From IMG/VR virus record IMGVR_UViG_3300015207_000448: 64,000 nucleotides of DNA, one strand, 5' to 3'. This stretch comes from a virus. Lineage: Duplodnaviria; Heunggongvirae; Uroviricota; Caudoviricetes. This document shows positions 12,637 to 30,144 of the stretch, in pieces. Made by a program: the position numbers and the translations under genes. The notes beneath the pieces were generated by a model that saw only the letters and a list, made by a program, of their open reading frames with translations, had not been told where the DNA came from and made no database searches. Position 1 is the first letter of the stretch; the number at the start of each line of letters is the position of its first letter.

Positions 12637-12659
12637 TATAAATCAAAATCTGAGATTAG

Positions 12660-14442: not shown

Positions 14443-14444
14443 CT

Positions 14445-15800
14445 AAGTATGTGGAGGCAAAGAATGATTGAGCAATCATTTAGTCATTGCGGCAGAATCC
14501 ACCGAGGAGAACGCGCTGATACCGCGTGCTCCTCCCGTTACGCCCGCCGCCAGACATCAAACAGATATAGCAACATACAATTCAATCTGACTTTGCCAAA
14601 AACCAAGTGTATGGATATATTCAACGGCTGCACACATTTAAGTGTCAGCAGGCAAATCGGGAACCGTTCTGTAAACTTGAGATTCCGAAACGGAATCCAA
14701 GTTCCTACAGAGCGGGACACCGATAGCCTGCTGCCTATATCGAAACTATATAGCAATACACCAAGTGCAGTGATGAATACTAAACTGAGTATGCAGACGA
14801 AGTTGAATGGCGTACCGTTTCAGGACATGATCATATATCACCTGAGTCTTGACCAGGTTAGCACCGTGGTCAGACTCAAGTTCCACGATCATGTCTACAT
14901 CAAACTGATAAAGATACATACAAAGCGCATGACAACTTCAAATTTCGCCGGGCGTGCGGCTCACGATTGTAAATCTGCAATCTTCAATGTTAGACGAGTT
15001 GTATTCGAGCTGTTCACGGACACACTGGGTCCAGTTTCCAGCTCGAAACACTCGTCAACATATCGAGAAAATAAAGATACACGTAACAGGAACGCAATCG
15101 TACAATTGATAACAGCGTCGAGTATGAGGCAGGTGCTTAATCTTGAAAATTTCAATGGATCAGACATAACCAGAAGTTCGTCGATTCCATCCAATCGACG
15201 AACTTCTGGCTGTACTGATTTCATATCAAGCAGATTACAGAAACATACAAACTCAAGTGAAAGTGCCTCCGGTATGCGCCGGGCTAAAATCCAAGCAGAC
15301 GAGTTTAGAGATACAGTTATCAATAAGCCAGGTACGGGACATTCCGACCGGCCAACTAAGCCGGTTCTCCGTGTCCCGTGCCTGGCTTCTGAATACTGTA
15401 TTCATCAAGCCTATAAAGCACCGCATTGTGTCTGACAGGATTGAAAATAGCGCAAATGGGCCATCGGGATCAGAACATTTATCGTAGCTGGTTTCAACGT
15501 AAGGTCGTCATCTCCCAGTAGATAACTGGATATGACGTCCTTCGCTCACCAGCTTCTGAATCGAAGAGATATAGCAAGCGCCGCTCTGATGAGATTGTCC
15601 GTAAAAGTGTAACGTAACATTTATATGCAAGAGGCCAAACTTCAATAACCCGCCGAGTCGAAGCCCTCCTGGATACAGGTAGGACCGACTACACAACGTT
15701 TCGTGGTCCATACCTGTATCCAGGAGGCCGCTGAACGGCGGGTTACATCTAAATCAATAGAGCAATACGTCATTGGCTTTGAGCATCTAATTTTTTAATC
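14445..15800 (+). other. 1.35-kb hairpin-dense noncoding region 3' of RT1; candidate RT-associated structured RNA or regulatory region
   Basis: Perfect or near-perfect long stems, e.g. ccagaagttcgtcgatt/aatcgacgaacttctgg (17 bp) and cctcctggatacaggta/tacctgtatccaggagg (17 bp) nested inside cccgccg/cggcggg, ggagaacgcgc/gcgtgctcctcc, gagtcttgacc/ggtcagactc. The only ORF here (14449..15435) is low-complexity and has no paralogue. Confidence 0.4.
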
Positions 15801-15805
15801 AACAA

Positions 15806-16264
15806 ATGAAAAATATCTATAAAGAAACACTGGCTAAAGTTGCTGAAGGAGCACGATTCTCAGTCAATTTTGAGAAACGAAACCTAAAAGTTAATGGCAA
15901 GTATGTCATTAAGGAGGGTAAATATGAAGGTGAACTGGGTGTCAGTCCACTTCCCGTAGTTGAAACACTGAAAGACATCGAAAGACTCTATCACCGCTAC
16001 CGTCACAGCATACCGTCCGAAAGGTCAGATGCAAGACGGAAAACATACTTTCAGGCAATTGCAGAGCATGAGCTGTCAGACGATGACATGCTTTATGGTG
16101 AGCGGAGAGATAACGCTCAGATTGCTTTGGAACTGTACGTCCTCTGCTCAATTCTCAATGGCTCTCTTGTATGGGAAGACTTCGCTCAGGGCAAATGGTT
16201 CTGGCAGTCTTCCAACGAAAAGGGCTTAATCATCTTGAAACAATGGATAAATAACAACAAATAA
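15806..16264 (+). CDS. Conserved hypothetical protein; paralogue of 53245..53706 (minus strand)
   Basis: Shared KYVIK-G-YEGELG, SLPSERSD-RRK-YF-A--EH-LSD-DMLYGE, KWFWQS blocks. Confidence 0.5.
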   Translation: MKNIYKETLAKVAEGARFSVNFEKRNLKVNGKYVIKEGKYEGELGVSPLPVVETLKDIERLYHRYRHSIPSERSDARRKTYFQAIAEHELSDDDMLYGERRDNAQIALELYVLCSILNGSLVWEDFAQGKWFWQSSNEKGLIILKQWINNNK

Positions 16265-16277
16265 GAAACGAATAACA

Positions 16278-17384
16278 ATGGCAAAGAAAAACCCCAACCC
16301 CAGTACAAAAATCGTATGCCCCGTGTGCGGTACAGAGTTTGCAATCCCCGAAAAAACTCACGTTGCTGTCGGTATCGTCGTAGGTGCAGACAGCGGTCTT
16401 GGCACCATCTACCCGGCAACGACAGGAGCCACCCAAACTCCGGCACCCAGTGCTCAATCTCAGAAGAAAGCGACTGAGAAGATTGAGGCTTTGCACATGG
16501 CCGGGGTTAATGTTGACAACCTCTTCAGTATGAAGAGCGCGTCCGGTCAGGAAATCATCGCCCGTATGGAAAACGGAAACCTCTCCGTTGTTCCCGACAA
16601 TGACCCGATTTTCGCAGTTATCATGGGACGTGGTACCGTGCCTAACCGCCGACTCTTCCGTCGCTGGGTGATGGCTCAGGTCTTCCACATGCTCAACTAC
16701 AAGTCCTATCGCGGAAACAAAACAGGTTTCGTTGCTGCACTCGAAGCCAAAGGTTACAAGTATCAGTGGAAGATGGTTCTTGAGGAAATGCGAGTACAGG
16801 CTAAGCTCGCCGCTGAAGACCCTGAGAACTTCGCACTCCGTAACCGCTGGTTCAACGATGGCCGCATCATGCAAATGGGCGTGGACTATCTGGAGCAGCT
16901 TGTGGCTCATATCAACAAGCTGAAGGTTCGTCACTGCAAAGGCGTGCCCTATGTTAAACTGGGCGGCAGAAACGTGTTTACTGCTGACATCCAGACTAAG
17001 GTCATTGACCCTATCGTGAAAGCGATGGCGAAAATAGGTGAGGCTGACACCCCTCAGAAACTTTACTACGCAGTCAATGCTGCTGTAAGATTCATTCAGC
17101 AATGGTGGTTCACCAACGACGCTTGTATGTCTCAGGCTTTCAAAGACGCATACAAGGGAGCTGGTGCATACTTCACTATGCAGAACCTTATTCTCTTCCA
17201 CGGGGCCAGTTTCAAAAATGGCTGCATCAAGCTTGGCCAGAAGAAATCTCTGGCTATGCTTGAGAACAAGGCTCACGAATATGCAACTTCACAGGAAGGC
17301 TGGCGTCTGTTCGGTGTGATGAAGAAACTCATCGCTGATTCTGGTATCAATATCGGAAAGAAGATGGAAGAATGGCGAAAATAA
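16278..17384 (+). CDS. Zn-ribbon-containing hypothetical protein; paralogue of 52182..53270 (minus strand)
   Basis: N-terminal CPVCGTEF; shared blocks AGVNV-NLFS, VVPD-DPIFA, RRLFRRWVMAQVFHM, FKDAYKGAGAYFT--NLILFH. Confidence 0.5.
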   Translation: MAKKNPNPSTKIVCPVCGTEFAIPEKTHVAVGIVVGADSGLGTIYPATTGATQTPAPSAQSQKKATEKIEALHMAGVNVDNLFSMKSASGQEIIARMENGNLSVVPDNDPIFAVIMGRGTVPNRRLFRRWVMAQVFHMLNYKSYRGNKTGFVAALEAKGYKYQWKMVLEEMRVQAKLAAEDPENFALRNRWFNDGRIMQMGVDYLEQLVAHINKLKVRHCKGVPYVKLGGRNVFTADIQTKVIDPIVKAMAKIGEADTPQKLYYAVNAAVRFIQQWWFTNDACMSQAFKDAYKGAGAYFTMQNLILFHGASFKNGCIKLGQKKSLAMLENKAHEYATSQEGWRLFGVMKKLIADSGINIGKKMEEWRK

Positions 17385-18157
17385 CATCCAATGAAATCCT
17401 CCGAGAGCAATCGCTCGAAAAGCTCACGGAGGCTTACTACGAACAGTATAAGTACGATAATCGGTTGCCGGATCTCTTTGAACTAATTGAACCTGAGAAG
17501 TTGTATGAGTGGCTTGTCGAACAGTTTGACAACGATTTCTCGTACAAAGAAATTAAAGAGTTGTTTGACTATCAGCCTGACTATTTGCAAATTGGTGAAG
17601 TTGAATACATCAATGGGATTCCTCATTTCTTGTTCGACCAGTCATCAGAAGGACTCATTTTCAAAGATGAGGAGGCGTATCAAGAAAACTGGGATGCTCC
17701 GTGCTATGTTCCAAAATACGCTGCTGAAGATGCTGCCATTACAGTTAACGACATAGAATATGAGTGTGCTGGAGACAAAGAGCATTGCGATTGGTTCTCT
17801 CATAACGACTTGCTTGAAATTTGCCACGGCAATAAAGTGCTATGTGATGAGGTGTTCCGGGAACTTGATTGGACATATCCGTCAACGTGGCTGGAAGACC
17901 GAGATATGCACGACAGCATTGATTGGGAATACTTCTGGAACTATGTCGAAGTAGGCAATAAAGTCTGGTGGAATGATCCAGAGCAGAAAACCTGCGGATG
18001 GTGTACAGTGGTAGAAATCAAAGATCCGAAAGGAGAATGGGGAATAGACACTGTTGTATGGATTCTTCCTGAAGGTTATTCCATCGGTTCCGAAGCCGAA
18101 GTTCCGTTACGTGAATTGACAGACTATCCATATCTAACCAATATCGAAGAAAATTAA
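17372..18157 (+). CDS. Acidic hypothetical protein; its C-terminal domain is related to the N-terminus of 50416..51345 (minus strand)
   Basis: KVWWNDPEQKTCGWCTVVEIK ... SEAEV against DVWWKDPEGKTSGSFLVLEIK ... SEAEV. Confidence 0.45.
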   Translation: MAKITSNEILREQSLEKLTEAYYEQYKYDNRLPDLFELIEPEKLYEWLVEQFDNDFSYKEIKELFDYQPDYLQIGEVEYINGIPHFLFDQSSEGLIFKDEEAYQENWDAPCYVPKYAAEDAAITVNDIEYECAGDKEHCDWFSHNDLLEICHGNKVLCDEVFRELDWTYPSTWLEDRDMHDSIDWEYFWNYVEVGNKVWWNDPEQKTCGWCTVVEIKDPKGEWGIDTVVWILPEGYSIGSEAEVPLRELTDYPYLTNIEEN

Positions 18158-18162
18158 AGACC

Positions 18163-18810
18163 ATGCCAATCGATAATTTTGAAATCATAAAGAGCTTGTT
18201 CTACTTCAATGAAGGGAACGATATGTTCTTTCACTGCCAAATTCTGAGACGAGGTAAAGACCACCCTGAGCTTCCGGCTGCAAACAAACTTATTCAGTCA
18301 TGGCTGATTCGGAGCCGTGATCAGTTGGACAAGTTAAAAGATGAAATTATCTTCCTTTGCGAGCATTACAAGGCGAGAGCATACATCAATGTTGCTGGGA
18401 AGGATTTTGATCGGCTCAATGCCCTTATCTTAAAGAAACTGGCAGAGAATAACTATACAGGGAACGTCATCAATCCGTGGCATATATACAACAGTGCCTG
18501 CGGAGAGTTAACCAGCAGAAGAAAATGCTGGATAGTGGATGTCGATAGTAAACATCCTGATGATTCGTTTGAAGTTCTCGAAGAGCTGGATGGCATCTGG
18601 CTGGAAACACATCCAGAAAGCAAAGCGTTATTAGACGACTGTAGGCGAGATCGTGTCTATCTGTACGCTACCATTCCAACTCTGAATGGCTATCATTTCA
18701 TCACTCAGCCATTCAATCTTCAAAAGTTTCGAGAAAAGTTCCCTGAAGTGGACGTACATAAAAATAATCCAACGGTACTGTATGTGCCGGAAAGTATAAT
18801 AAACAAATGA
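18163..18810 (+). CDS. Hypothetical protein
   Basis: ORF track; no motif recognised. Confidence 0.4.
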   Translation: MPIDNFEIIKSLFYFNEGNDMFFHCQILRRGKDHPELPAANKLIQSWLIRSRDQLDKLKDEIIFLCEHYKARAYINVAGKDFDRLNALILKKLAENNYTGNVINPWHIYNSACGELTSRRKCWIVDVDSKHPDDSFEVLEELDGIWLETHPESKALLDDCRRDRVYLYATIPTLNGYHFITQPFNLQKFREKFPEVDVHKNNPTVLYVPESIINK

Positions 18811-19031
18811 GTAAACTAATCGACATAAAAATTGTACCGGAGTTTGACCGTATGGGGACCGGTGCATGTTGCTATCATCTGGTAACAATCCGAGAACACC
18901 GCTTTCTTTTCTGGAAGTGGAGAGACGAATCTGTAGTCGGCCCACCATATCAGACGAAGGTGGCTGCGAAAATAGCAAAGAAGAAAATGCTACAACAAGT
19001 TAACTGAAGTGGCACATAATATTAAACAAAA

Positions 19032-19823
19032 TTGTTTCAAATGAAAATCAAACGATTCAAGAAATTCAAAAATGGTATTGTTTATGCCCTTGCCCTGGAT
19101 GATGGAAGACTTATCGAAACCACCGATACATTCCTTCCTTTCTACACAAAGGATGCAATCGGGCGTAAGCAGAACAAACTCGACAATTCAAATCTCGGTG
19201 ATCGCACAGAGCGTTGGATGATAGGTGTATCAACTATGAGCGGATGTCCAGTTCATTGCAAGTTTTGCGCAACTGGAAATATGAAAGGTTGGCGCAATCT
19301 TACCGCTGATGAGATTGTCAGTCAAGTCATGTTTGCTATCGAACAGGCGGGTGCAGACCCGAATGAAGCAAAGGAGTTCAAGATTAACTATACTCGTATG
19401 GGCGAGCCTTTCCTTAATATCGAAAACGTCAAGGAGGCTATCCGCAGAATCACGGAGATTTACCCTAACACCCATCACTATGTCTCAACCATAGGTGTCA
19501 AAGACAGCGATTTTTCTTTTGTCAAGGGCAATGTCACACTCCAAATAAGTCTTCATTCGTTTGATGAGGCGCACCGAGACTGGCTGATTCCTTTCAAGAA
19601 GAAAATGAGTATTGAAGAACTCGGTCAGATTCGTACAGAGAGCAATCTCAAAACAACCATCAATCTTACTCTGGTGGAAGAAAGCGACTTTGACGCTGAC
19701 AAGCTACGTCAATACTTCGACCCGCGACACTTCTTTGTCAAGTTGTCTCCAATCAACCCTAACGAGGTTTCTGATGGGAACAATCTTGGCAAAGGTATAA
19801 TCGAGGGTGTAAACCTCGTATAA
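19032..19823 (+). CDS. Radical SAM protein related to RlmN/Cfr, short form
   Basis: MSGCPVHCKFCATG matches the RlmN/Cfr CxxxCxFCATG cluster; 263 aa is shorter than canonical RlmN. Confidence 0.55.
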   Translation: MFQMKIKRFKKFKNGIVYALALDDGRLIETTDTFLPFYTKDAIGRKQNKLDNSNLGDRTERWMIGVSTMSGCPVHCKFCATGNMKGWRNLTADEIVSQVMFAIEQAGADPNEAKEFKINYTRMGEPFLNIENVKEAIRRITEIYPNTHHYVSTIGVKDSDFSFVKGNVTLQISLHSFDEAHRDWLIPFKKKMSIEELGQIRTESNLKTTINLTLVEESDFDADKLRQYFDPRHFFVKLSPINPNEVSDGNNLGKGIIEGVNLV

Positions 19824-19987
19824 CACAATGTTTCATTATTAAAACAGAAAGGAGGACACTATGGAAGCTATCAAACGCTCTTTGGAAAGCATGGGCTACA
19901 GTTATGCGGTAGCCATTGCCACTCAGTCAGAGATTGAGAATGGCGCTGCTTGTGGACAGCTTGCTATTATCTGCGAGTAATCAGTTG

Positions 19988-20036
19988 GACGGAGGTGGAT
20001 AGAGACACCACCTTCTACCACCTCCGTCTTATTTCT
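19988..20036 (+). terminator. Rho-independent terminator
   Basis: gacggaggtgg ... ccacctccgtc followed by ttatttct. Confidence 0.55.
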
Positions 20037-20050
20037 AACAATCAACAAAT

Positions 20051-20260
20051 ATGGGCAAAACATTAAAACAGAAAGTGTACCACATCCTGTTCAACAAGGA
20101 TGGCAAAATGAACCTCAAAGTACCTCGGAAATTGCGTTGGAGCTATTTCAACAAGCTGCGCCGACATGATTTCGATCGAGACTTAGAGCGTGCAGAACTG
20201 GTAGATAAGCGAGACAAGGCGAGTCTGAAAGAAATGCGACAGCAAATCAATGATATATAA
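20051..20260 (+). CDS. Small basic protein
   Basis: ORF track; K/R-rich. Confidence 0.3.
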   Translation: MGKTLKQKVYHILFNKDGKMNLKVPRKLRWSYFNKLRRHDFDRDLERAELVDKRDKASLKEMRQQINDI

Positions 20261-20270
20261 GTAAGAAACT

Positions 20271-21479
20271 ATGAAAGTATTTCACAACATAATCGGTCAG
20301 GAGGTGAAGATTTTCGGGGATATACTCGAAGACGAAGCTCTGGCTCAAATACAGCGATTGGCTGATTTCAAGCCATACCAGAACTCGCATATCCGAATTA
20401 TGCCGGATGTCCACGCCGGTAAGGGTTGTACTATCGGTACGACTCTTGTATTGGATGACGCGGTTACACCCAACCTTGTAGGCGTTGACATCGGTTGCGG
20501 CATGTTCGTGGTTCCTCTTGGAAATGCAGAGATTGACCTTCCTTTGTTGGATCAAATCGTCAACGAAAAGATTCCCTCTGGATGCCACATTCACCCCAGT
20601 CCAATTGCACAATTCCCTATGTTAGAAAACTTAAAGTGCATCAAAGCAATTGACACTTATAAGGCATATTGTGCGTTAGGTTCTCTTGGTGGCGGTAATC
20701 ATTTCATTGAGCTGAATGAAGATGCAGAGGGTGGCAAGTTTCTTGTAATCCACTCAGGCAGCCGAAATCTCGGAGTGCGTGTATGTCAGTTCTATCAGAA
20801 GATTGCAGAAGAGCTGTGTCGCCAAGGATATGTGGACAGAAACGAAATTATTCAGCGATTAAAGGCTGAAGGTCGATCGCAGGAAATCCAGACAGAGTTA
20901 CAAAAGCTCAAGTCTAAAAATGAGCCAGTTCCCGATGGCTTGGCATATATCACTGGAGAAGTCAAGGATGACTATCTGCATGATATGTATATCGCTCAGG
21001 ATTATGCAAGGTTGAATCGCGAAACAATCGCCTACTTGATTTTGCAAGAACTGGGATTGAACTCTTGTATTGCCGCCAATGGGTTCCATACAGTTCATAA
21101 CTATATTGATACCAACGATAATGGTACAATATTACGCAAGGGTGCTGTCCGAGCCAACATGGGTGAAATGCTCATTATTCCAATGAATATGCGAGACGGT
21201 TCACTAATCTGTATCGGTAAGGGTAATCCAGACTGGAATTATTCCGCACCTCACGGAGCCGGTCGCTTGATGTCTCGTAAGAAGGCCAAGGAATCACTAT
21301 CTCTTGAAGAATTTGCAGATAATATGAAGGATGTATATTCGTCATCAGTCTGCGCTTTTACTCTTGATGAGGCTCCGATGGCATATAAGCCGATGCAAAG
21401 CATTGTGGATGCCATTCAAGAGACCGTTGATATTCAAAATATTATTCGTCCAATCTATAATTTCAAAGCTAAGGAATGA
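20271..21479 (+). CDS. rtcB: RtcB-family RNA 3'-phosphate ligase
   Basis: MPDVHAGKGCTIGT, GGGNHF and APHGAGRLMSR motifs; 402 aa. Confidence 0.85.
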   Translation: MKVFHNIIGQEVKIFGDILEDEALAQIQRLADFKPYQNSHIRIMPDVHAGKGCTIGTTLVLDDAVTPNLVGVDIGCGMFVVPLGNAEIDLPLLDQIVNEKIPSGCHIHPSPIAQFPMLENLKCIKAIDTYKAYCALGSLGGGNHFIELNEDAEGGKFLVIHSGSRNLGVRVCQFYQKIAEELCRQGYVDRNEIIQRLKAEGRSQEIQTELQKLKSKNEPVPDGLAYITGEVKDDYLHDMYIAQDYARLNRETIAYLILQELGLNSCIAANGFHTVHNYIDTNDNGTILRKGAVRANMGEMLIIPMNMRDGSLICIGKGNPDWNYSAPHGAGRLMSRKKAKESLSLEEFADNMKDVYSSSVCAFTLDEAPMAYKPMQSIVDAIQETVDIQNIIRPIYNFKAKE

Positions 21480-21760
21480 AAACAATATATAAATATCCAC
21501 TCGAATGGGCCGATGAACAGGCGATTGCGATGCCCAAAGGCGCAAAGATCTTATCTGTTCAGTGGATTAGAGGGCAAGTCTGTATTTATGCGCTTGTAGA
21601 TACTGATGAGAAAACGTGTGAGGCCCATCAGTTTCTCATTATCGGAACTGGACATCTCATCAGACCGAACACAGAACCGGCAGTGCATTACTTTTTAGGC
21701 ACTGTTCATAATGAGGATCAATCTTTAGTGTTCCACATTTTTGAAAAGAAAGAACAATGA
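21476..21760 (+). CDS. Small hypothetical protein
   Basis: ORF track. Confidence 0.3.
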   Translation: MKTIYKYPLEWADEQAIAMPKGAKILSVQWIRGQVCIYALVDTDEKTCEAHQFLIIGTGHLIRPNTEPAVHYFLGTVHNEDQSLVFHIFEKKEQ

Positions 21761-22368
21761 AAACAGGACAAACAATTCTTGTGGGCGCAGACGAAGCACC
21801 GAGCTTTCGCCCAATGAATTTCACCAACCCCAAAGTTGGCGTGATTCTGGCCCGCTTCCAGCCCATTCACAACGGCCACCTTGCCCTCATTGAGAAGGCT
21901 TGTAAAGAGAACGACCATGTACTGATACTCATAGGGTCAGCAGACAAGCTCAATGAACGCAACCCAATTCCGTGGACTATACGTCGTGAGCTGGTGACTG
22001 CGGCCATTGCAGAACGAGGCTTTGTCAATACATCCATCGAAGAACTCCAAGACCTTACTGATGAATCCGACAATAGCCATGATTGGGGTTTCTACCTCTA
22101 TGCTTCAGTGGTTTCCAAGACAAAATCGCCAGAGTTCACCATCTACTACTCTGATGGCTTCGAGATAATCACTTCGTGGTTCCCCGGCTTCCTTCTGAGA
22201 AACTGCGTATCATTATCGTTGCTGGCTCGAAATGCTTGTGAGGCCGGCATTTCTGCGACATCGGTGCGCGACATGATACTTTCAGATTCGCTTCCTGAAA
22301 GTGTGGTGCCAAAGTGTGTGTATGAGAAGCGAGAGTTGATTAAGGCATTTCTTAACGTGTTCAAATGA
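21757..22368 (+). CDS. NadM-type nicotinamide/nicotinate mononucleotide adenylyltransferase-like protein
   Basis: VGVILARFQPIHNGHLALIEKA ... LILIGSADK matches the NadM HxGH nucleotidyltransferase N-terminus (GRFQPFHxGH ... IGSA). Confidence 0.6.
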   Translation: MKTGQTILVGADEAPSFRPMNFTNPKVGVILARFQPIHNGHLALIEKACKENDHVLILIGSADKLNERNPIPWTIRRELVTAAIAERGFVNTSIEELQDLTDESDNSHDWGFYLYASVVSKTKSPEFTIYYSDGFEIITSWFPGFLLRNCVSLSLLARNACEAGISATSVRDMILSDSLPESVVPKCVYEKRELIKAFLNVFK

Positions 22369-22552
22369 AAAGTTCTATCAAAGCGATTAGGGCACAATGC
22401 GTTAATGATGTGGCTAAAAAGTATAAGCGAGACATTGAACGTCTGCAAAAAGAAAATGGAGAGCTAAAGCTCTTACTCGCCAAGTATCGTAACGAAATCT
22501 CGAAGCTCCAACACAGTTTGGAGCTTGAACGTAACCCTCAATTAAAAAGCAA

Positions 22553-22789
22553 ATGAAACCACAAATAATTCTAACAATATCAATCCTGGCAATAGCAATC
22601 CTTTCTGGGTGCGACAGCGATAAGGTACAACGTGTCAAAACCGCTAACGAGACCAAACTGATAGAAATTGACACACTGGACATTCATGGTACAAAGCACG
22701 AAGTTATCTTTTGGTACTGGAACTATAAAGGCGGCATGATGCACAGCCCAGAATGTTGGTGTAAAACAGATAGCACACAATGGAAATAG
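22553..22789 (+). CDS. Small lipoprotein
   Basis: Signal peptide plus lipobox (ILSGC). Confidence 0.4.
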   Translation: MKPQIILTISILAIAILSGCDSDKVQRVKTANETKLIEIDTLDIHGTKHEVIFWYWNYKGGMMHSPECWCKTDSTQWK

Positions 22790-23284
22790 AGTACACCAAA
22801 GAACAAGTTCGGGCCGCAAAACGTGCAGCAAAGGCATTAAAAGAGCTTGCGGACTCTGGGCTTTATCTAATCTGGCACGCTTCTTCTGGATATATATTGC
22901 TATCCATCTTCAGAAGATGTACCGGATAGAGGGTACGGCGATGATGTACTTGTCTGTGGTCATATTCACGAAGGTGGCGACTGGTAAACTGAAATAAACA
23001 AAAAACAATGGAAGATTTAATTAAAGCACTTCTGATATTTCAGAAATATATCAAGCCGGATGATTTGGCATATAAATATCCAACTGCGTGTGAACACGAT
23101 GAGCTGTATGTCAACGTCAACCCCGACATCGTTTCCATTGAGGATAAGAAAGCCTTGTATGCGTTGGGATTCTTTCCGAGCGAATATAGCGGAGACGAAG
23201 ATTACTACACACCGCCAACTGAGCCAGAAATGGAGGGCGACTGTTTCTTGTCATACAAATTTGGAAGTTGAACGAATTGAAGCA

Positions 23285-23677
23285 ATGAAAGCAAAAGTAA
23301 GAGCGACTGGAGAAATCGTGGATGTTTACAATGCACCGCATCACCCAGATGTTTGGTATGGAGCAAGCCTTCTCCCTTATGGCACACGTGAGCTGGAGTT
23401 CATCGCTTATTCTCGATCCTTAACCGATGGTTTGTTGGCTCAATTCTCTGATCAAGAACTTCGTGAAGAGCTGAAGAATCGTGTTGATCTCCGTAAAGCA
23501 GCCCATATTTTCCTCCGTTGTCGTGATTGTAAGCACTGTGGTGAGGGGTGCTGTCATAAGAGTAGCCGTTACAAGACCTCAGTGTGCTTCCTGAAACCCA
23601 AACCACAAGTCGGTCCTGACCGCTATTATGCGACTCTCCTTTCGAGGAAGGCATGTGAAAATTTTGAACCGAAATAA
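23285..23677 (+). CDS. Cys-rich hypothetical protein; paralogue of 38846..39244 (minus strand)
   Basis: Start at the internal Met of ORF 23060..23677; shared KATGEIVDV-N-P--PD-WYGA, RDCK-C-EG, KPKP--G--RYYAT-LS-K-CE-FEPK. Confidence 0.45.
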   Translation: MKAKVRATGEIVDVYNAPHHPDVWYGASLLPYGTRELEFIAYSRSLTDGLLAQFSDQELREELKNRVDLRKAAHIFLRCRDCKHCGEGCCHKSSRYKTSVCFLKPKPQVGPDRYYATLLSRKACENFEPK

Positions 23678-23678
23678 C

Positions 23679-24944
23679 ATGAAATCTATAATAATATACT
23701 CTGGTAAAGGCGGCGTAGGTAAAACTACGGTGACAGCTAATTTGGCCAGATTACTTGCATCGCAAGGCAAAAAAGTGTTCGTGATTGATGCAGACATCAA
23801 TACTCCATCCATGAATACAGAGTTTGATGGTGAGCATCCAACCGACAATATTTGGGTTCACTCCAGTGGTAACATTTTTCAAAAATTTATTTACCTGGAA
23901 AAATCAATGGTAAGAAGGTATTTGGAAGATGCTAAAAAGAAACTTAATAAACTGGATGTGGATTATGTACTGATTGACACACCACCCAGTGTTACAAATA
24001 TCCACATTGAGCTGCTAAAACGATTGAGCGTAAGTTATATTCTCTTTGTTACTCAGCCCACAAAACTTAGTATTGAAGATGTAACTCGCACAATGGATTT
24101 TTTTAGAACGCAATGCGGGAAATTTTGTAAGGCTGGGGTGGTTGAAAACATGTGTTCTAACGCTAATGCACATGAATATTCAATACCCCTTATTGCTCAA
24201 ATTCCATTTCAAAATGGATTAGATACCAGCAACCTTCTTGATAATGCTAAAGATGAATTTCAGAAGATAGCTAATGAGATTTCATCGAGTGGAGAAGTCG
24301 TTCTCACGTCTTTTTCAACAGATGGTGGGTATGATGAAAGCTTTGATGTGATCAGCATCCGAGAAACAATTCTAAAGAATAGTCGCACAATTTACGTCCT
24401 TGAATTGAAATATGACAATGGCGATTGTAAAGAATTAAAACTCCCGGCTTTGAAATTTCTATCATGTCGTACTTGGGCTGCAATTTATGAGTTCATACAA
24501 GAAGAGGAGGCTCAAATGCCATTTGGACATTGGGACAAACGTATGGAAGCGTGCGGCGTAGATAGGGTATCACGTTTAGTCAACGCTTTTGAAGGAGATG
24601 ACAATGCGTTGTTCATGGTCAATAACGCTCCAAGTACAGAAGTTCAGTTAATAACTGGCGAAATCGGTTTATGTTCTCTTTTGACCAACGAAACATCGCA
24701 TTTTGGCATACCAAGAGTCAAATATCAAACGTCAAAGGGAAGCATAACGCTTTTCCCCGATGAAGTGATACCTATCTCAATTAACGAATTACAGTATTAT
24801 CTCAATAACGGCTATACTCCATTATCTGACGGTCGATATATACCAAGTAAAGAAGATTTATCTGTGATATACAATACTTTTGGCGAGAGGGTCGGCTTAA
24901 TGGAAAATTGGGAAGAAGTGTATGATTCATGGGTAAATCCATGA
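23679..24944 (+). CDS. ParA/MinD-family P-loop ATPase with a C-terminal extension of about 170 aa
   Basis: Walker A box IIYSGKGGVGKTTVTANLA, and DADINTPS; 421 aa. Confidence 0.75.
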   Translation: MKSIIIYSGKGGVGKTTVTANLARLLASQGKKVFVIDADINTPSMNTEFDGEHPTDNIWVHSSGNIFQKFIYLEKSMVRRYLEDAKKKLNKLDVDYVLIDTPPSVTNIHIELLKRLSVSYILFVTQPTKLSIEDVTRTMDFFRTQCGKFCKAGVVENMCSNANAHEYSIPLIAQIPFQNGLDTSNLLDNAKDEFQKIANEISSSGEVVLTSFSTDGGYDESFDVISIRETILKNSRTIYVLELKYDNGDCKELKLPALKFLSCRTWAAIYEFIQEEEAQMPFGHWDKRMEACGVDRVSRLVNAFEGDDNALFMVNNAPSTEVQLITGEIGLCSLLTNETSHFGIPRVKYQTSKGSITLFPDEVIPISINELQYYLNNGYTPLSDGRYIPSKEDLSVIYNTFGERVGLMENWEEVYDSWVNP

Positions 24945-24972
24945 CCGCTTGAATTTATAGACAATCGATAAT

Positions 24973-25446
24973 ATGGAACAGGAAGAAAAGAAGCAAATAA
25001 TAGTTCCTTACGATGAATATATGGAACTGAAGCGTAAAGCAGATTCTCATTCAGTGTTCATCACAACTACTATAAAGTTAGATCGTGATGGTAGTTGTGA
25101 TTTGATGATTGAGAGAGCTGACTCAGAATGTGAACGCCAAGAAGATGTTGATAATTGGATGAAATCCTTAATGAGCAAATTCTTCTCTGAGCACAACCAG
25201 CGCATCCGCTATCACCAACAAAGGGCTGAATATTACGAAAACAAGAATTGTGGTCTTTCTCGTATCAATTCTCAGCTTTATGATCAAATCTCACGATTGA
25301 AAGATGAAGTTGCTTCACTGAAAGTCGCTCCTTCAGTTCAACCACAGGAGCCGGAGACAACATCACAACCTAAATGGTATTCGCTTTTGACCTATTTGGG
25401 TTGGGTTATGGCACTTGTTACGCTAATTCTTTGGATAATCAAATAG
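24973..25446 (+). CDS. Tail-anchored coiled-coil membrane protein
   Basis: C-terminal WYSLLTYLGWVMALVTLILWII; heptad-rich centre. Confidence 0.4.
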   Translation: MEQEEKKQIIVPYDEYMELKRKADSHSVFITTTIKLDRDGSCDLMIERADSECERQEDVDNWMKSLMSKFFSEHNQRIRYHQQRAEYYENKNCGLSRINSQLYDQISRLKDEVASLKVAPSVQPQEPETTSQPKWYSLLTYLGWVMALVTLILWIIK

Positions 25447-25456
25447 CATATATGCC

Positions 25457-25966
25457 TTGGGCGGCTTAGTAAAACCCAAACTGAACAAGATGAAACAATA
25501 CATCGGAACAAAGTTGGTGTCTGCCACGCCAGCGATTCGCAAAGGTGGCAAAGTTTATTCCCCGACAGATGAAATTCCTAAATCAATGGAGCCGGTCGAG
25601 GAGGGCTACAAAGTAATCTACGAGGGCGGTTATGAGAGCTGGAGTCCAAAAGACGTGTTTGAGAAGGCATATCGCCCTTGTGATGGCATGAACTTCGGAC
25701 TCGCCATTGAAGCTCTTAAACAGGGCAAGTGTGTCACTCGCAAAGGGTGGAATGGCAAAGGAATGTTCCTATGGCTCAAGCCCGGTGCAAACGTCAAAGC
25801 TGAGTGGTGCAAAGACCCCAAACTCTACGACCTCGCAATGCAGAACGGAGGCGAAATTGAAGCGCTCGGCACAATCTGTATGTTTACCGCTCAGAAACAA
25901 ATTCTCAGCGGTTGGCTCGCATCTCAGACAGACATGCTTGCTGAAGACTGGATGATTCTTGAGTGA
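25457..25966 (+). CDS. DUF2829-family protein (Tad2-like sponge candidate) with an N-terminal extension
   Basis: FGLAIEALKQGKCVTRKGWNGKGMFLWL ... WLASQTDMLAEDWMILE matches my recollection of the DUF2829 hallmarks. Confidence 0.5.
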   Translation: MGGLVKPKLNKMKQYIGTKLVSATPAIRKGGKVYSPTDEIPKSMEPVEEGYKVIYEGGYESWSPKDVFEKAYRPCDGMNFGLAIEALKQGKCVTRKGWNGKGMFLWLKPGANVKAEWCKDPKLYDLAMQNGGEIEALGTICMFTAQKQILSGWLASQTDMLAEDWMILE

Positions 25967-26354
25967 TATGGAAGATACTGTATTATATGGTCATGCTCTC
26001 GTTCTGAAAGAACTTGGATTTAACAGACCTACGGAGTTTTACTTCACGAAGGAAGACGCTCCTAAATCTATGGTTTGGCGTAAACGTGCTGAAGTGCTCA
26101 ATTATAATGGAGATACAGGGCTTCCTCCCAAAGTTTCTGCCCCCACTTTCTATGAGGCAGCGAAATGGCTTCGAGAAGTCAAAAACTGGAGTGTCCGAGT
26201 TAACTATTCCAGAGAAAATCGTGAATGGTTCTACGACATCCTCAATATGGAAACTGGGGATTATGATGACGGAGGTGATTGCTACTTCCAGTCATACGAA
26301 GAAGCGTTTTCTGCCGGCGTATCGGCAATATTGTCAAAACTTACGACAAATTGA
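25959..26354 (+). CDS. Hypothetical protein
   Basis: ORF track. Confidence 0.3.
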   Translation: MSDMEDTVLYGHALVLKELGFNRPTEFYFTKEDAPKSMVWRKRAEVLNYNGDTGLPPKVSAPTFYEAAKWLREVKNWSVRVNYSRENREWFYDILNMETGDYDDGGDCYFQSYEEAFSAGVSAILSKLTTN

Positions 26355-26406
26355 TATGGTGGCACAAGCCACAATAATCCACCTAAAATACATAATAGCC
26401 ATGTAA

Positions 26407-26667
26407 ATGAAATTCATAGAAGCCATTGGCCAGTGGTTCCGCAAAGTGCGGGAACAATACCACGAAGAAAGACAACAGAAGCGCTGTCACTATCTTGACA
26501 ACCTCAGTTGTGAGAGTATCAATGTAACAGAGTTTAACGGACGTTTACACATCTCCTACAAGGGTGTGCCTATCGTTAGAGTAGATGACCTCAAAGGCAA
26601 AGCCCCTGAAATACTGGCGCAATCCCGTGAGGACTATCTGGCATGGAAAGCTAAATTTAACGCATAA
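26407..26667 (+). CDS. Small hypothetical protein
   Basis: ORF track. Confidence 0.3.
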   Translation: MKFIEAIGQWFRKVREQYHEERQQKRCHYLDNLSCESINVTEFNGRLHISYKGVPIVRVDDLKGKAPEILAQSREDYLAWKAKFNA

Positions 26668-26919
26668 TTCGATATGAGACAATCGAACTTCAAGACAAAC
26701 GACAAGGTTATAATCGTGAGCAACGGTCTTCAACCTCAGTATCAAGGGAAGACCGGGAAAATCAAGAAAGTTTACCCCTCCTTCAGCGAGAACGATGCGG
26801 AAGAACACGAGTTCTTCTATCGCGTTGAAGTTGACGGCACTGTTCTAAAAGGAATTGCTCGTGATTCCGATTTGAAGCCGCAATAAAAGACTCAAATCAA
26901 AAGTAAATCTTGTTGACTG

Positions 26920-26965
26920 GACGAGAACCGGGAGCCTCCTAAACCTTCTGGTTCTCGTCTTTTTA
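26920..26965 (+). terminator. Rho-independent terminator, followed by a candidate promoter
   Basis: gacgagaacc ... ggttctcgtc ttttt; then ttgcaaagttagcaaatatttaattga. Confidence 0.55.
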
Positions 26966-27027
26966 TATTTGCAAAGTTAGCAAATATTTAATTGATAATC
27001 AAATAAATCATATAAAAAGAAACAACA

Positions 27028-27210
27028 ATGGCAAGAACTGCAAACAAGAAAGCACCTGGGAAATCAACACGTCCCACAGACTACGAACCTCAGCCTGGTC
27101 ACAAGGCAACTCTCAGCCTCGCTGATTTTACTGACAACGACTTATTCGCAGAGCTCCGGCGCCGTGGTTACAATGGTGAGCTTCGTTCACTTAAAGTTGT
27201 GACGGTATGA
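27028..27210 (+). CDS. Small basic protein with a C-terminal LFAELRRRGYNGELR motif; paralogue of 50226..50408 (minus strand)
   Basis: The 43 C-terminal residues are about 80% identical between the arms, far above the 40-50% seen for other paralogue pairs. Confidence 0.5.
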   Translation: MARTANKKAPGKSTRPTDYEPQPGHKATLSLADFTDNDLFAELRRRGYNGELRSLKVVTV

Positions 27211-27446
27211 GAAATTTCAACCCTAAGGCACTTTGCAACAAGTGTCAAATCAAGAAAGCCTCAGGTCTTCACTCTTGTCCTTTCGAGCAGAAACACATGT
27301 GTCCTGACTATCAGGCTTATGTCGCAGATAATGCGTTACAGTTTGAGGACTCTGCGCTCCAAATTCCAGTAGAGTCGTTGCTGACCGCATTGAGATTTCA
27401 CGGTTACTCTGGTGAGCTTCGCAAATCAGAGATCGTAGTAATCTAA
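27207..27446 (+). CDS. Small Cys-rich protein ending in GYSGELRK; paralogue of 49966..50229 (minus strand)
   Basis: CNKC ... CPF ... C cysteines; C-terminal GY-GELR motif shared with the upstream gene. Confidence 0.45.
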   Translation: MRNFNPKALCNKCQIKKASGLHSCPFEQKHMCPDYQAYVADNALQFEDSALQIPVESLLTALRFHGYSGELRKSEIVVI

Positions 27447-27519
27447 TAGTAGAATATTCAGTTGAATACATAGAATCTCCCTAATTTTTATTAACTTTGC
27501 AGCAGCTTTATTGCTAAGG

Positions 27520-27700
27520 ACATATTAGAAAAAGTGCCTCACACCTTGTGAAATCGCCAAAATAATCACGTAAGCACGAGGCACGGTGACAGCTCATATA
27601 TCGTGGGCTGCCTAACCGTGCGTGTTTACAGGTGTTTGGCGATACCTACAAGGAAAGCATGGGAGGGCAGTCCACTTTTCTTGTGCCTATGCTGCGAAAC
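27520..27700 (+). other. Candidate structured 5' leader RNA upstream of the membrane-protein genes
   Basis: Long-range pairing ccttgtgaaatcgccaaa / tttggcgatacctacaagg enclosing cacgaggcacggt / accgtgcgtg. Confidence 0.25.
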
Positions 27701-27718
27701 TTATAAAACAAGAAAACA

Positions 27719-28093
27719 ATGAGCAAAAAAATACCTGCCCCAAATGAGGATGGTAGAGAAATTGTATCAATGGTAATGATAGGGGCTCTTATGGGCTTCT
27801 TGCTCACTGGTATATTTCTGGGTACCATCGGATTTTTAATTGATTGTATGAGCGGTGAATGGGCCTGGCGATGGACAAATTTACTTGGAGGTGTTGTTTG
27901 CATAGGGCTTGGAGCTGTAGTAGCGTTATTGCTCTTTCTATATATCTACTTTTTTCTGCCACATAATATGGCAAAAGTGTTCCCAAGATTATGGGGATTC
28001 GGATTCATACCGGCACTCCTTGCATTATCTTCAGCAATGATTATTGGTATTCAAATATCGTCATGGGTTATTCCAAAATGGTTAGGCGTATGA
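27719..28093 (+). CDS. Polytopic small membrane protein
   Basis: Several hydrophobic segments. Confidence 0.4.
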   Translation: MSKKIPAPNEDGREIVSMVMIGALMGFLLTGIFLGTIGFLIDCMSGEWAWRWTNLLGGVVCIGLGAVVALLLFLYIYFFLPHNMAKVFPRLWGFGFIPALLALSSAMIIGIQISSWVIPKWLGV

Positions 28094-28542
28094 GAAAGAA
28101 GTTAATCATATTAGGTAAGACTTTAATTATCTTAGGCTTCCTGAATCCTATTCCTATCGGTTTTCTCGGATTGACACGTTCAGCTAAGATAATCTGGGAT
28201 GGTAGTGAATATTCCAGTCCTTACGATTATTGGTGGCCCGGCCTCATCCTGATCATGGTTGGGTTTATATTGTGTAGACTGTCGGGAGGCAAACCAATTG
28301 CACTATACAACAAAAAAATCTGGAAGGAAGAAGCAAGGTCGTGTGTTAAAGGATTTGCTTGGGCGATATTGGGTTCATTGGCGCTCGTTGCAGCGTTCTT
28401 GTTAGTAGTGTCATCGATTGTCGGCATATATTATGCTTTCTTCTCTAAATATATGCCGACCCTATTGCCTATATGCGGTGGAGTATGTGTTTTGGCCTAT
28501 TTAATTTATATAGGATTCCGAATCTATAAAAATACTAAGTGA
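28090..28542 (+). CDS. Membrane protein
   Basis: ORF 27991..28542, start MRKKLIIL; 4 predicted TM segments. Confidence 0.4.
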   Translation: MRKKLIILGKTLIILGFLNPIPIGFLGLTRSAKIIWDGSEYSSPYDYWWPGLILIMVGFILCRLSGGKPIALYNKKIWKEEARSCVKGFAWAILGSLALVAAFLLVVSSIVGIYYAFFSKYMPTLLPICGGVCVLAYLIYIGFRIYKNTK

Positions 28543-28543
28543 T

Positions 28544-28945
28544 ATGACGCGGCAAGATTTTTCTCAAATGTTAGCAATCGCATCAGAAAACGCTACAGTG
28601 AAAATCAATGATTGCTTGCCTCATATCTTCAAACTCTCTAAACATAAAATTGATGTTCTCCTAACAGGAAGCGAGAGTTTCAATATGACTGATTGTTTTC
28701 ATTTCATCCAAGCGTGTGATTTCACGATGGAGTTTGAAGGGGAATATTGTACAGAGCTTTCAGACCTAAGAGCTGCCATAAAGAAAACTCGCCAAGACTA
28801 TAAAATGTCTCGTAGAGATCTGTCAATTAAATCTGGAGTCCACACCAATGTCATTAGTGCGTTTGAAGATGGAAGCTGTACTCTGAAAATCGACAGTCTG
28901 CTCAGAATCACAGATGCTCTTAATGCCACTATAACAATAGAATAA
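28544..28945 (+). CDS. Protein with a C-terminal XRE-type HTH
   Basis: LSIKSGVHTNVISAFEDG. Confidence 0.4.
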   Translation: MTRQDFSQMLAIASENATVKINDCLPHIFKLSKHKIDVLLTGSESFNMTDCFHFIQACDFTMEFEGEYCTELSDLRAAIKKTRQDYKMSRRDLSIKSGVHTNVISAFEDGSCTLKIDSLLRITDALNATITIE

Positions 28946-28954
28946 CAACTAACC

Positions 28955-29209
28955 ATGAACAAAGAAAGACGTGAGGAGCTACTGGAGGTCATCCAGTCGC
29001 TTGATGACGCTATAGATAAACTGAATGAAATTCGTGATGATGAACAGGATGCTTTTGACTCTTTGCCGGAAGGATTTCAGTATTCTTCAAGGGGTGAGGC
29101 TATGATAGATGCAGTAAGCACTCTTGAGGGCTTTGGCGAAGAAATTGCTCAAATTAGTGCAAAGATTGAAGCCTTTTCCAAGCCACCAAAGAAAAAGAAG
29201 AAGACATGA
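28955..29209 (+). CDS. Small acidic protein; paralogue of 47666..48070 (minus strand)
   Basis: DAFDSLPEGFQYSSRGEAMIDAV against NRPESFQWSAANDAMTDNV. Confidence 0.4.
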   Translation: MNKERREELLEVIQSLDDAIDKLNEIRDDEQDAFDSLPEGFQYSSRGEAMIDAVSTLEGFGEEIAQISAKIEAFSKPPKKKKKT

Positions 29210-29568: not shown

Positions 29569-29579
29569 TATTTGATAAT

Positions 29580-29885: not shown

Positions 29886-30068
29886 AAATTTTTTCGTCTT
29901 AACATGAATCAGGAAATACATAATCGTCTTAATATGCTTATATACAGTAGGAAATTATAAGTTTATACCATACATTCAAACTGACAGTAAATACACTGAT
30001 AATCAGTATGTTATGTGAAAATTTTAACACTTTTCCTTGCTGGTTTTAGGCATTTTAGAATTAACTTT

Positions 30069-30114
30069 GTACCACCGGGTCGCACTTTTAGTCGGCTCGG
30101 TGGTACTTTATTTT
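30069..30114 (+). terminator. Hairpin terminator
   Basis: gtaccaccg ... cggtggtac followed by tttatttt. Confidence 0.45.
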
Positions 30115-30144
30115 GAATAATCAATAAAACGCAATTGAATAATC

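Follow-up and report, generated by a model that had tools for sequence, protein, structure and literature searches.

That phages can counter NAD+-depleting immunity (Thoeris, SIR2, DSR and SEFIR systems) by reconstituting NAD+ has been recognised only recently, and each pathway described to date consists of a pair of genes. NARP1 combines the PRPP-synthetase-like Adps with the Nampt-like Namat; NARP2 of Vibrio phage KVP40 consists of Nampt and a bifunctional Nmnat/Nudix protein (bioRxiv 10.1101/2024.02.11.579819); and NARP3 joins the transporter PnuC to an NMNAT fused to a ribosylnicotinamide kinase (PMC13464706). According to a published survey, phages that bear NadM always have NadV (PMC9503650), a rule that makes a lone gene atypical. 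In the current study, we characterized such a gene at 21757..22368 (+) of a 64-kb window, i.e., the whole stretch of DNA that was analysed. Its product is probably a stand-alone, Nudix-less, archaeal-style NadM-like nicotinamide (possibly nicotinate) mononucleotide adenylyltransferase and is best read as the Nmnat part of a NARP2-type pathway whose genes lie apart, with Nampt missing from the window.

The ORF encodes 203 aa, and its ATG at 21757 overlaps the stop codon of the upstream gene as ATGA. Most homologues start at the equivalent of Met20 (nt 21814) and are 184-186 aa long, and residues 1-21 are predicted to be disordered (pLDDT <50) in an AF2 model with a pLDDT of 83.4 for the protein; translation may therefore actually begin at 21814, yielding 184 aa. 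The product matches Pfam PF01467 far more strongly than chance would allow, with 37.5 bits (cut-off 21), and has at least 944 homologues, or 3356 cluster representatives, at E<=1e-3. An alignment of 24 family sequences contains 58 invariant columns. The two motifs on which the earlier note based its reading, ARFQPIHNGH (residues 32-41, 21850..21879, +) and LILIGSADK (residues 56-64 of the same + strand gene), were both confirmed in the product. The former is a HIGH-type (H/T)xGH nucleotidyltransferase motif, and the pattern GxxxRFQPxHxGH appears here as G28-VILA-R33-FQPI-H38-NG-H41. R33, H38, and H41 are invariant in the 24 homologues and align with R11, H16, and H19 of the M. thermoautotrophicum NMNAT (1EJ2), of which R11 and H19 are the positions mutated in PDB entries 1m8f, 1m8g, and 1m8k. 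The second NMNAT-type motif, SxTxxR, is found as ISATSVR (residues 165-171, 22249..22269, +), with T168 and R171 invariant and S166 nearly so. It aligns with YSGTEVR of archaeal NMNAT, whose R136 has been replaced in a deposited active-site mutant (R136A, PDB 1m8j).

NadM/archaeal-type NMNATs are the closest matches of the protein, whether judged by profile, by PDB sequence, or by fold. Its top NCBIfam matches were all NMNAT models; NF002243, an NMNAT subfamily, matched residues 28-192 at E 2e-14 and TIGR01527 matched at E 2e-10. PDB sequence matches at E<1e-3 were confined to NadM/NadR NMNATs, and the M. thermoautotrophicum NMNAT occupied Foldseek ranks 1-7 (E 3.5e-9 to 2.1e-8, 26-28% identity; 25-28% over the top matches). 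PPAT (CoaD) came next at 12-18% identity, scoring almost equal to NMNAT on structure alone (TM-score). In hhalign, residues 27-197 aligned with archaeal NMNATs (98.4%, E 7e-15), the ends of the archaeal sequences having been verified against the PDB matches. Matches to NCBIfam models of PPAT and citrate-lyase ligase covered the N-terminal motif region only, at E >=7.5e-6. A cytidylyltransferase family such as glycerol-3-phosphate cytidylyltransferase (TagD) had been named beforehand as the placement that would speak against NadM, and no TagD or GCT model occurred among the 25 best of 29 NCBIfam matches; the PHROG label of the gene, 'cytidyltransferase' (phrog_395), is a generic one. Against bifunctional models of 340-354 positions only the N-terminal half is matched, and against NadR models only the adenylyltransferase part. 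The scores nevertheless fall below the curated cut-offs, with 53.4 vs. 127 bits for NF002243 and 40.7 vs. 181.2 bits for TIGR01527, and the ten more distant relatives that were tested stayed below them without exception. Since, in addition, neither Pfam nor NCBIfam profiles matched a Nudix domain in the 203-aa protein, the defensible label is that of a 'NadM-like' subfamily and not of a certified NadM member. The NadM-type identity proposed in the earlier note thus stands as regards the nearest relatives by all methods, but not as regards the curated thresholds.

The substrate side of the protein is more distinctive. The predicted pyridine-nucleotide pocket, D99-L100...N106-x3-W110 (22051..22086, +), was located from conservation and hhalign. 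All four named residues are invariant in the 24 homologues, and in hhalign, with archaeal sequences verified at their ends, they fall on D80, I81, N84, and W87 of archaeal NMNAT, which we take to be its ligand (nicotinamide) contacts. The pocket loop is four residues longer than in archaeal NMNAT. Overall, the central third (approximately residues 95-160) has longer loops and the family-specific invariant motifs DESDNSHDWGFYLY and YYSDGFEIITSWFPGF, and is left unaligned in plain HMMER searches. In NMNATs, the central third holds the mononucleotide, in a pocket with Asp/Ile, Asn, and a stacking Trp after strand 3.

Pfam scans of most window ORFs of at least ~50 aa between 3960 and 63274 (all but a few hypothetical ones) detected no Nampt (PF04095, PF18127), and the window from ~11.7 to 32.4 kb was also covered by precomputed Pfam results on identical or near-identical relatives. 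The ORFs scanned likewise contained no PRPP-synthetase-like, Nudix, PnuC, or NadR-kinase gene, and no match to Pribosyl_synth, Pribosyltran, or NAPRTase at E<=0.01. Hence neither component of NARP1 (Adps, Namat) was found among them, nor a PnuC or kinase-domain match of the NARP3 kind. Using the Nampt of a related phage as query, tblastn returned nothing in the whole 64-kb window and nothing in the complete genome of Bacteroides phage BS-TP1, in which PRPP-synthetase-like, Nudix, PnuC, and NadR-kinase genes were not found either. To judge from relatives, Nampt is probably absent from this exact phage beyond the window as well; an IMG/VR contig of 119 kb, whose copy of the target gene is 95% identical, was missing from both Nampt scans. 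The ORF at 18163..18810 (+), once suggested as the partner, has an AEP primase-like fold instead and was discarded.

The absence of a Nampt or ADPR-PP synthase partner therefore holds for the window ORFs scanned, but not for all related phages, some of which carry Nampt ~9.5 or ~21 kb away. Nampt (NAMPT_N + NAPRTase) lies ~9.5 kb downstream of the target homologue in four BS-TP1-like loci (L005, L007, L012, and L128), beyond a tRNA array that comprises 15-19 tRNA genes in L005, L007, and L128. We considered whether it might be a flanking host gene there, and rejected this because phage genes lie on both sides of it, the tRNA array on one and Tad2-like/terminase genes on the other. Furthermore, at least eight IMG/VR phage contigs of 123-270 kb carry both Nampt and a target homologue, separated by ~21 kb on the two large contigs measured. 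A single-sequence scan had suggested that Nampt and an NMNAT of this family never share a viral contig, a result overturned by the alignment-based scan that recovered these contigs. Nampt was never adjacent to the target homologue in relatives, and none of 34 Nampt-bearing viral loci had a NadM-like gene within 3 kb of Nampt.

The phage origin of the DNA was borne out, as the + strand block with the target is syntenic to the isolated Bacteroides phage BS-TP1 (111.7 kb), whose gp96 (PQ571274.1, annotated 'cytidyltransferase') is 66% identical to the target. The host element is a ~110-kb temperate gut Bacteroidales (Muribaculaceae) myophage of BS-TP1 type, with the target in its early/accessory arm, where RtcB, Tad2-like genes, tRNA genes, and a reverse transcriptase are also encoded. 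A conjugative element had been considered, given that the 64 kb contain no structural genes but do encode an integrase and PcfJ/PcfK-like proteins; it was rejected in view of the BS-TP1 synteny and of the terminase genes found downstream in relatives. A megablast of 15000..39000 against phage records gave no match. The accessory region is highly mosaic, and a second prophage block in the window does not contain the target gene. Directly upstream are an RtcB RNA ligase (20271..21479, +; Pfam RtcB E 7e-61) and a DUF7352 gene (21476..21760, +; PF24043 E 2e-24; phrog_3848), RtcB being the first gene of an RtcB-DUF7352-NMNAT run with 4-nt start/stop overlaps. RtcB is missing from most homologous loci (the group at 68-80% identity mostly lacks it within 10 kb) and is therefore context rather than a conserved partner; DUF7352 adjoins the target homologue only in the group at >=87% identity and in one other locus (L095). 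A Tad2-like (DUF2829) gene of the Thoeris anti-defence family lies 3 kb downstream (25457..25966, +; PF11195 E 1.7e-22) and is one of two in the window by Pfam scans. Of the 117 family loci with at least 2.5 kb of flanking sequence on either side, 90 have a Tad2-like gene within +/-10 kb; in the 68-80% identity band, 19 of 31 loci have one within 2.5 kb. Such genes are thus frequent, not invariable; no neighbour is constant across the family loci, and none conserved across the homologous loci points to NAD metabolism. Further downstream are a Band_7 gene, identified by Pfam, and six tRNA genes (31479..33504, +), the only Rfam matches over the window. Relatives carry Nampt after this position; here, an HTH gene and two small ORFs come after the tRNAs, and the prophage then ends.

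The target would catalyse NMN + ATP -> NAD+ + PPi and would thereby keep up NAD+ during infection. Because its family shares genomes with Nampt located 9.5-21 kb away, it resembles the Nmnat component of a NARP2-type pathway with separated genes. Since Nampt is missing from the window phage and BS-TP1, NMN must there come from another source. It may be supplied by host salvage or by the NAD-dependent DNA ligase of this phage lineage, which releases NMN at each ligation; the target would turn this NMN straight back into NAD+. The ligase is gp50 in BS-TP1, and in one relative (L176) it lies 8.5 kb to the left of an ORF identical to 1557..2420 of the window, suggesting that the window's own phage also encodes LigA. 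The link to an NAD-dependent ligase is not shared by all: in the 120-270 kb phages, the ligase nearby is of the ATP-dependent type, as judged from its motif by eye. It is conceivable, if unlikely, that the lone Nudix-less NMNAT is a one-enzyme NAD+ recycler that re-adenylylates NMN from the phage ligase and from any host NAD+ pyrophosphatase, a minimal counter-measure distinct from NARP1, NARP2, and NARP3. If so, phage DNA replication would run on ATP, buffered against host NAD+ depletion, with no need for Nampt. Two Tad2-like genes, RtcB, and tRNA genes in the surroundings suggest that the target may have a counter-defence role.

Several features would also fit a HIGH-superfamily nucleotidyltransferase of NMNAT descent that now uses another acceptor (a phosphorylated small molecule, an ADP-ribose-derived immune signal, FMN, or phosphopantetheine) and whose product is not NAD+. 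The target scores below every curated NMNAT cut-off, its substrate-side central region is family-specific and extremely conserved, and PPAT structures fit nearly as well by TM-score; moreover, the products of the Tad2-like genes that often adjoin bind ADPR-derived signals, and Nampt is missing from the window and BS-TP1. However, PPAT and other families are far weaker by sequence (E >=7.5e-6, N-terminus only), the residues aligned to archaeal nicotinamide-contact positions (N106, W110, and D99) are invariant, and two separate phage lineages combine the family with Nampt, so that we assign this reading only a minor share of the probability. The absence of Nampt could also mean that the gene is a relic of an earlier Nampt+Nmnat pair, dispensable now and with little function in this phage, given that some close relatives have Nampt, that the accessory region is mosaic, and that the second prophage block of the window does without the gene. 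This is quite improbable, since the catalytic residues are intact and invariant and 395 blocks of the assembly collection list the exact protein; the Nampt-less state is also kept in BS-TP1 at 66% identity, indicating purifying selection without Nampt.

The overlapping codons of RtcB, DUF7352, and the target suggest one translationally coupled unit, which raises the question of an RNA-repair module. In such a module the target would supply or consume an adenylylated intermediate, or NAD+, for mending tRNAs cut by host anticodon nucleases and would not serve the general NAD+ pool; the tRNA genes nearby and an RNA ligase in the same region of relatives would suit this role. We consider it very unlikely, since most loci show no RtcB linkage, the gene is flanked by NrdD/NrdG and dUTPase in the 120-270 kb phages, and no Tpt1/KptA-type NAD-dependent RNA enzyme was detected in Pfam scans of window ORFs. 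In addition, the cofactor of RtcB is GTP, not NAD+. The assignment as a NadM-like NMNAT of a split pathway remains our preferred reading.

The target belongs to a large, previously uncharacterised subfamily of Nudix-less, archaeal-like enzymes in gut Bacteroidales phages and in larger phages of 120-270 kb. In these phages, Nampt is far off in the genome when present and is absent in some, including the isolated BS-TP1; such phages are missed by operon-based NARP2 searches, because Nampt and NMNAT are so far apart. The Nampt-less phages lend themselves to studying whether a phage benefits from the final step of NAD+ synthesis by itself, e.g., in recycling ligase-derived NMN. Should the target prove an ordinary NMNAT, the gain would be mainly a better annotation of a gene now called 'cytidyltransferase'.

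Compared with NARP2, the locus likewise has an NMNAT-type enzyme encoded by a phage in a region rich in counter-defence genes, and the family co-occurs with Nampt in the genomes of relatives. In contrast, the target is without Nudix, the window and BS-TP1 are without Nampt, and elsewhere Nampt is 9.5-21 kb off and not adjoining. Phage NadM-Nudix proteins are 23-32% identical to the target. The target is homologous to the N-terminal adenylyltransferase domain of bacterial NadM-Nudix enzymes (Synechocystis slr0787, 2QJO; Francisella, 2QJT/2R5W; E 1e-4 to 1e-8, TMq 0.64-0.68) but has no counterpart at all to their C-terminal Nudix (ADP-ribose pyrophosphatase) domain. BS-TP1 gp96 occupies the same syntenic accessory block, also without Nampt, but its neighbours differ, with RtcB ~4 kb upstream and ParA-like and radical SAM genes in between. 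The archaeal NMNATs (M. jannaschii MJ0541, 1F9A; M. thermoautotrophicum, 1EJ2; TIGR01527/NF002243) are likewise single-domain proteins (~170-185 aa) of the same Rossmann-like HIGH-nucleotidyltransferase fold, and share with the target the GxxxRFQPxHxGH motif, the GSxxK...RNP segment, and SxTxxR. They are its best sequence, profile, and fold match, yet only 25-33% identical. The target differs from them in a longer loop before the N...W pocket and a family-specific helix after strand 4, and its family is encoded by gut phages and prophages, whereas archaeal NMNATs are encoded on archaeal chromosomes.

The ORF at 21757..22368 (+), which encodes 203 aa, belongs to a NadM-like, Nudix-less subfamily closest to NMN adenylyltransferases (NMNATs). 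Pfam places it at superfamily level only (PF01467, CTP_transf_like, 37.5 bits vs. a cut-off of 21). NCBIfam is more specific, and its top matches are all NMNAT models: NF002243 (E 2.2e-14, 53.4 bits, residues 28-192 on model positions 3-154 of 175), the archaeal NMNAT model TIGR01527 (40.7 bits), several bifunctional NadM-Nudix models and the NadR adenylyltransferase domain, all scoring well under the curated cut-offs (127 bits for NF002243 and 181 bits for TIGR01527). PPAT, NadD and citrate-lyase ligase models match far more weakly and over the N-terminal motif region only, and no glycerol-3-phosphate cytidylyltransferase model occurs among the best 25 of the 29 NCBIfam matches. PHROGs returned phrog_395, "cytidyltransferase" (1e-12), and phrog_3462, "nicotinamide-nucleotide adenylyltransferase" (1e-8). 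A PDB sequence search gave only NadM or NadR NMNATs at E<1e-3, led by MJ0541 (1F9A, 1.7e-7) and then the M. thermoautotrophicum enzyme (1EJ2 and mutants); a 24-homologue profile improved these matches to 1.9e-11 and 4.4e-9, respectively. With an AlphaFold2 model (pLDDT 83.4, pTM 0.79), Foldseek ranked M. thermoautotrophicum NMNAT structures first (E 3.5e-9, 26-28% identity), with PPAT structures close behind in TM-score at merely 12-18% identity. Finally, hhalign aligned residues 27-197 of the family profile with two archaeal NMNATs (98.4% probability, E 7e-15); the ends of the archaeal sequences used here agree with the HMMER alignments. All four of the NCBIfam, PDB sequence, Foldseek and hhalign comparisons thus support the NadM assignment proposed in the earlier note at the level of a NadM-like protein, and placement with glycerol-3-phosphate cytidylyltransferases did not occur.

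The N-terminal motifs recognized in the earlier note are present (ARFQPIHNGH, residues 32-41; LILIGSADK, residues 56-64), as is ISATSVR at residues 165-171, the second motif typical of NMNATs. Since homologues are mostly 184-186 aa, with a first residue that corresponds to Met20 (nt 21814), and residues 1-21 are predicted to be disordered in the AlphaFold2 model, the start codon (21757 vs. 21814) is uncertain. The ATG at 21757 shares ATGA with the stop codon of the upstream DUF7352 gene (21476..21760, +), which overlaps RtcB (20271..21479, +) at 21476..21479, and the stop codon overlaps the ATG of a 63-aa ORF at 22365. These three start/stop overlaps define a run of overlapping genes: RtcB, DUF7352, the NMNAT-like gene and the 63-aa ORF.

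A tblastn search of the protein against phage records found Bacteroides phage BS-TP1 (PQ571274.1, 111,694 bp; isolation host B. salyersiae), whose gp96 ("cytidyltransferase") is 65.9% identical. BS-TP1 carries terminase, portal, sheath, baseplate, tape-measure, integrase and replication genes, and window positions 430..31133 are collinear with its 67.5-97 kb block; this synteny and phage gene content identify the window as phage DNA. A conjugative element, first suggested by PcfJ-like (56401..57696, -) and PcfK-like (57718..58122, -) proteins together with an integrase, was dropped on the BS-TP1 homology and collinearity; by synteny, these usual conjugative-element markers (56401..58122, -) lie here within a phage accessory block. 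Genome scans found close homologues in Muribaculaceae (best, isolate-002, 96% identity) and more distant ones in one Lachnospiraceae MAG and one Bacilli MAG, and an identical protein has entries in 395 blocks of the assembly collection. At least some contigs carry the phage as an integrated prophage. On contig L214, host genes (DUF3843, a restriction-modification enzyme, DJ-1 and a chorismate-binding enzyme) directly follow a 135-aa ORF corresponding to 33845..34300, which places one prophage end at ~34.3 kb. The window comprises two diverged accessory blocks of the same kind of phage in opposite orientation, 430..34300 (+) and 34849..64000 (integrase and - strand block), meeting at ~34.3-34.8 kb beside the tyrosine integrase (34849..36111). 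Paralogous pairs (+ block/- block) include reverse transcriptases (RTs; 13183..14442/54554..55828), the genes at 16278..17384/52182..53270, RNase H-like genes (30741..31136/44471..44866) and Tad2-like genes (25457..25966/36775..37224). The arrangement resembles a pair of related prophages lying next to each other at a single attachment site; the NMNAT-like gene and RtcB occur in the + block but not in the other.

By gene content, with two Tad2-like genes, RtcB, tRNA genes and RTs, the neighbourhood fits a putative host-takeover or counter-defence region. The Tad2-like genes (DUF2829, PF11195) match at E 1.7e-22 (+ block) and 1.5e-14 (- block), and of the 117 family loci with enough flanking sequence, many of them near-duplicates, 90 have such a gene within +/-10 kb. 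The + block copy has an extra N-terminal region matching other PHROGs with no assigned function (phrog_872). An array of tRNA genes surrounds a Band_7/SPFH gene, with six in the window (31479..33504) and 15-19 in the related contigs L005 (15547..18958) and L007 (15316..19151); the Band_7 protein is 97-98% identical between phages whose remaining genes share just 45-77%. The segments 13183..15700 (+), 53700..55828 (-) and BS-TP1 79351..81960 hold a conserved 419-aa RT and the stretch after it. The RT is 74% identical to BS-TP1 gp79, mis-annotated there as "tail protein". The ~1.3 kb that follows, unannotated in BS-TP1 and holding only a no-match ORF call (14449..15435) in the window, may encode a non-coding RNA associated with the RT; Rfam at gathering thresholds found nothing in this stretch. 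Two radical SAM proteins and a 438-aa Mrp/NUBPL-type ParA-like ATPase, with no domain assigned to its C-terminal half, are encoded at 19032..19823 (+), 23628..24944 (+) and 42714..43529 (-). The ATPase adjoins a radical SAM gene in BS-TP1, and the two may be an Fe-S delivery/radical SAM pair of unassigned role.

No Nampt or ADPR-PP synthase had been seen in the window, and Pfam and tblastn bore this out for the ORFs scanned. The Pfam scan (E<=0.01) covered most ORFs of at least ~50 aa between 3960 and 63274, apart from the RT-adjacent ORFs 14449..15435 and 53245..53706, the RT paralogue 54554..55828 and three likely spurious ORFs, and gave no match to NAPRTase/NAMPT, PRPP-synthetase, phosphoribosyltransferase, Nudix, PnuC or NadR-kinase. 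Nor does precomputed Pfam list such a gene on identical or near-identical contigs covering ~11.7-32.4 kb of the window, or, over 8.5 kb farther left, on L176, a contig that shares an identical ORF with the window (1557..2420). With a related phage Nampt as query, tblastn found none in the window or the complete BS-TP1 genome, whose annotation lists none.

Relatives do carry Nampt. On L005, a Muribaculaceae-type contig with an NMNAT-like gene 72% identical to ours, a 503-aa NAMPT_N + NAPRTase gene begins 9.4 kb downstream, an arrangement repeated in L007, L012 and L128. This Nampt sits after the Band_7 gene and 15-19 tRNA genes, and where viral contigs carry this Nampt or one 80% identical to it, a Tad2-like gene comes next and then a gene homologous to that for the large terminase of BS-TP1. 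Its position therefore indicates phage cargo, and phage genes on both sides exclude a host gene. The equivalent place in the window holds only the six tRNAs, then an HTH gene, two small ORFs and the prophage end. A second homologue group (57-61% identity) occurs on IMG/VR contigs mostly of 95-195 kb, a few up to 435 kb, and at least eight of its contigs (123-270 kb) also carry Nampt in an alignment-based scan of the viral collection. Nampt and the NMNAT-like gene lie at 83.4-84.6 and 105.5-106.0 kb in IMGVR_UViG_3300007184_000001, and at 73.7-74.9 and 95.7-96.2 kb in 3300045988_065177. On contig L035 of this group, the NMNAT-like gene is flanked by NrdD/NrdG (the anaerobic ribonucleotide reductase pair) and dUTPase, as read from translations. 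In two phage lineages, BS-TP1-like relatives and large IMG/VR contigs, members of the family thus occur in the same genome as Nampt, and the two genes are never adjacent in genomes carrying both. The Nampt-less state is seen in BS-TP1, probably in the window's phage, and in L013, a 119-kb viral contig with a 95%-identical copy; L013 is absent from the Nampt matches listed in either of two scans. Several gut viral contigs of IMG/VR (L180-L213, several of 91-102 kb) encode a Nampt 74-80% identical to that of L005, have no NadM-like gene within 3 kb of it and are absent among the contigs listed for the NMNAT family; by this pattern, lone-Nampt phages may exist alongside lone-NMNAT phages.

From these sequence relationships, the protein probably acts as an NMN or NaMN adenylyltransferase, and we consider a role in NAD+ synthesis the most probable reading, at somewhat better than even. 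Its substrates would be ATP and NMN (possibly NaMN too) and its product NAD+ (or NaAD), which across the family would be step two of a NARP2-type route (bioRxiv 10.1101/2024.02.11.579819). Without Nampt, NMN would have to come from another source, which could be NAD-dependent DNA ligase or host salvage. NAD-dependent DNA ligase releases one NMN per ligation. BS-TP1 encodes such a ligase (gp50), L176 has a 654-aa LigA-type gene 8.5 kb left of the shared ORF, and a ligase gene probably lies just outside the window in its phage.

In the hhalign alignment, the invariant R33, H38, H41 and R171 correspond to archaeal R11, H16, H19 and R136, with PDB mutant entries at R11 (1m8f/1m8g), H19 (1m8k) and R136 (1m8j). 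D99, L100, N106 and W110, also invariant, align with D80, I81, N84 and W87, which we take to be nicotinamide-contacting residues. The central third carries strongly conserved, family-specific motifs, DESDNSHDWGFYLY and YYSDGFEIITSWFPGF, and its loops exceed those of archaeal NMNATs in length. Action on a changed acceptor seems unlikely. The family is graded, with 51, 329 and 3356 proteins at E<=1e-30, <=1e-10 and <=1e-3 among 1.84 billion cluster representatives, mostly stand-alone and of 180-200 aa, and all 10 relatives sampled across this range match NMNAT models best, every score again under cut-off. That the gene is a dispensable leftover is improbable, and a part in RNA repair together with RtcB we hold to be slightly more doubtful still.

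The nearest known proteins to this NAD+ enzyme candidate are the single-domain archaeal NMNATs, and the nearest known system is phage NARP2. Unlike bifunctional NadM-Nudix and the NARP2 Nmnat, it has no Nudix domain, and in contrast to curated NMNAT families it scores under their cut-offs; Nampt, paired with Nmnat in NARP2, is distant or absent in this family. NARP3 consists of PnuC and a NadR-like protein (PMC13464706) and does not apply to this phage. One survey reports NadV in every phage that carries NadM (PMC9503650), and in another study Nmnat is reported to be encoded by 94% of Nampt phages too (bioRxiv 10.1101/2024.02.11.579819); a lone or distant-Nampt arrangement is described in neither statement. 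The gene is of use for annotation, as it is for the question whether an enzyme for the last step of NAD+ synthesis helps a phage on its own.
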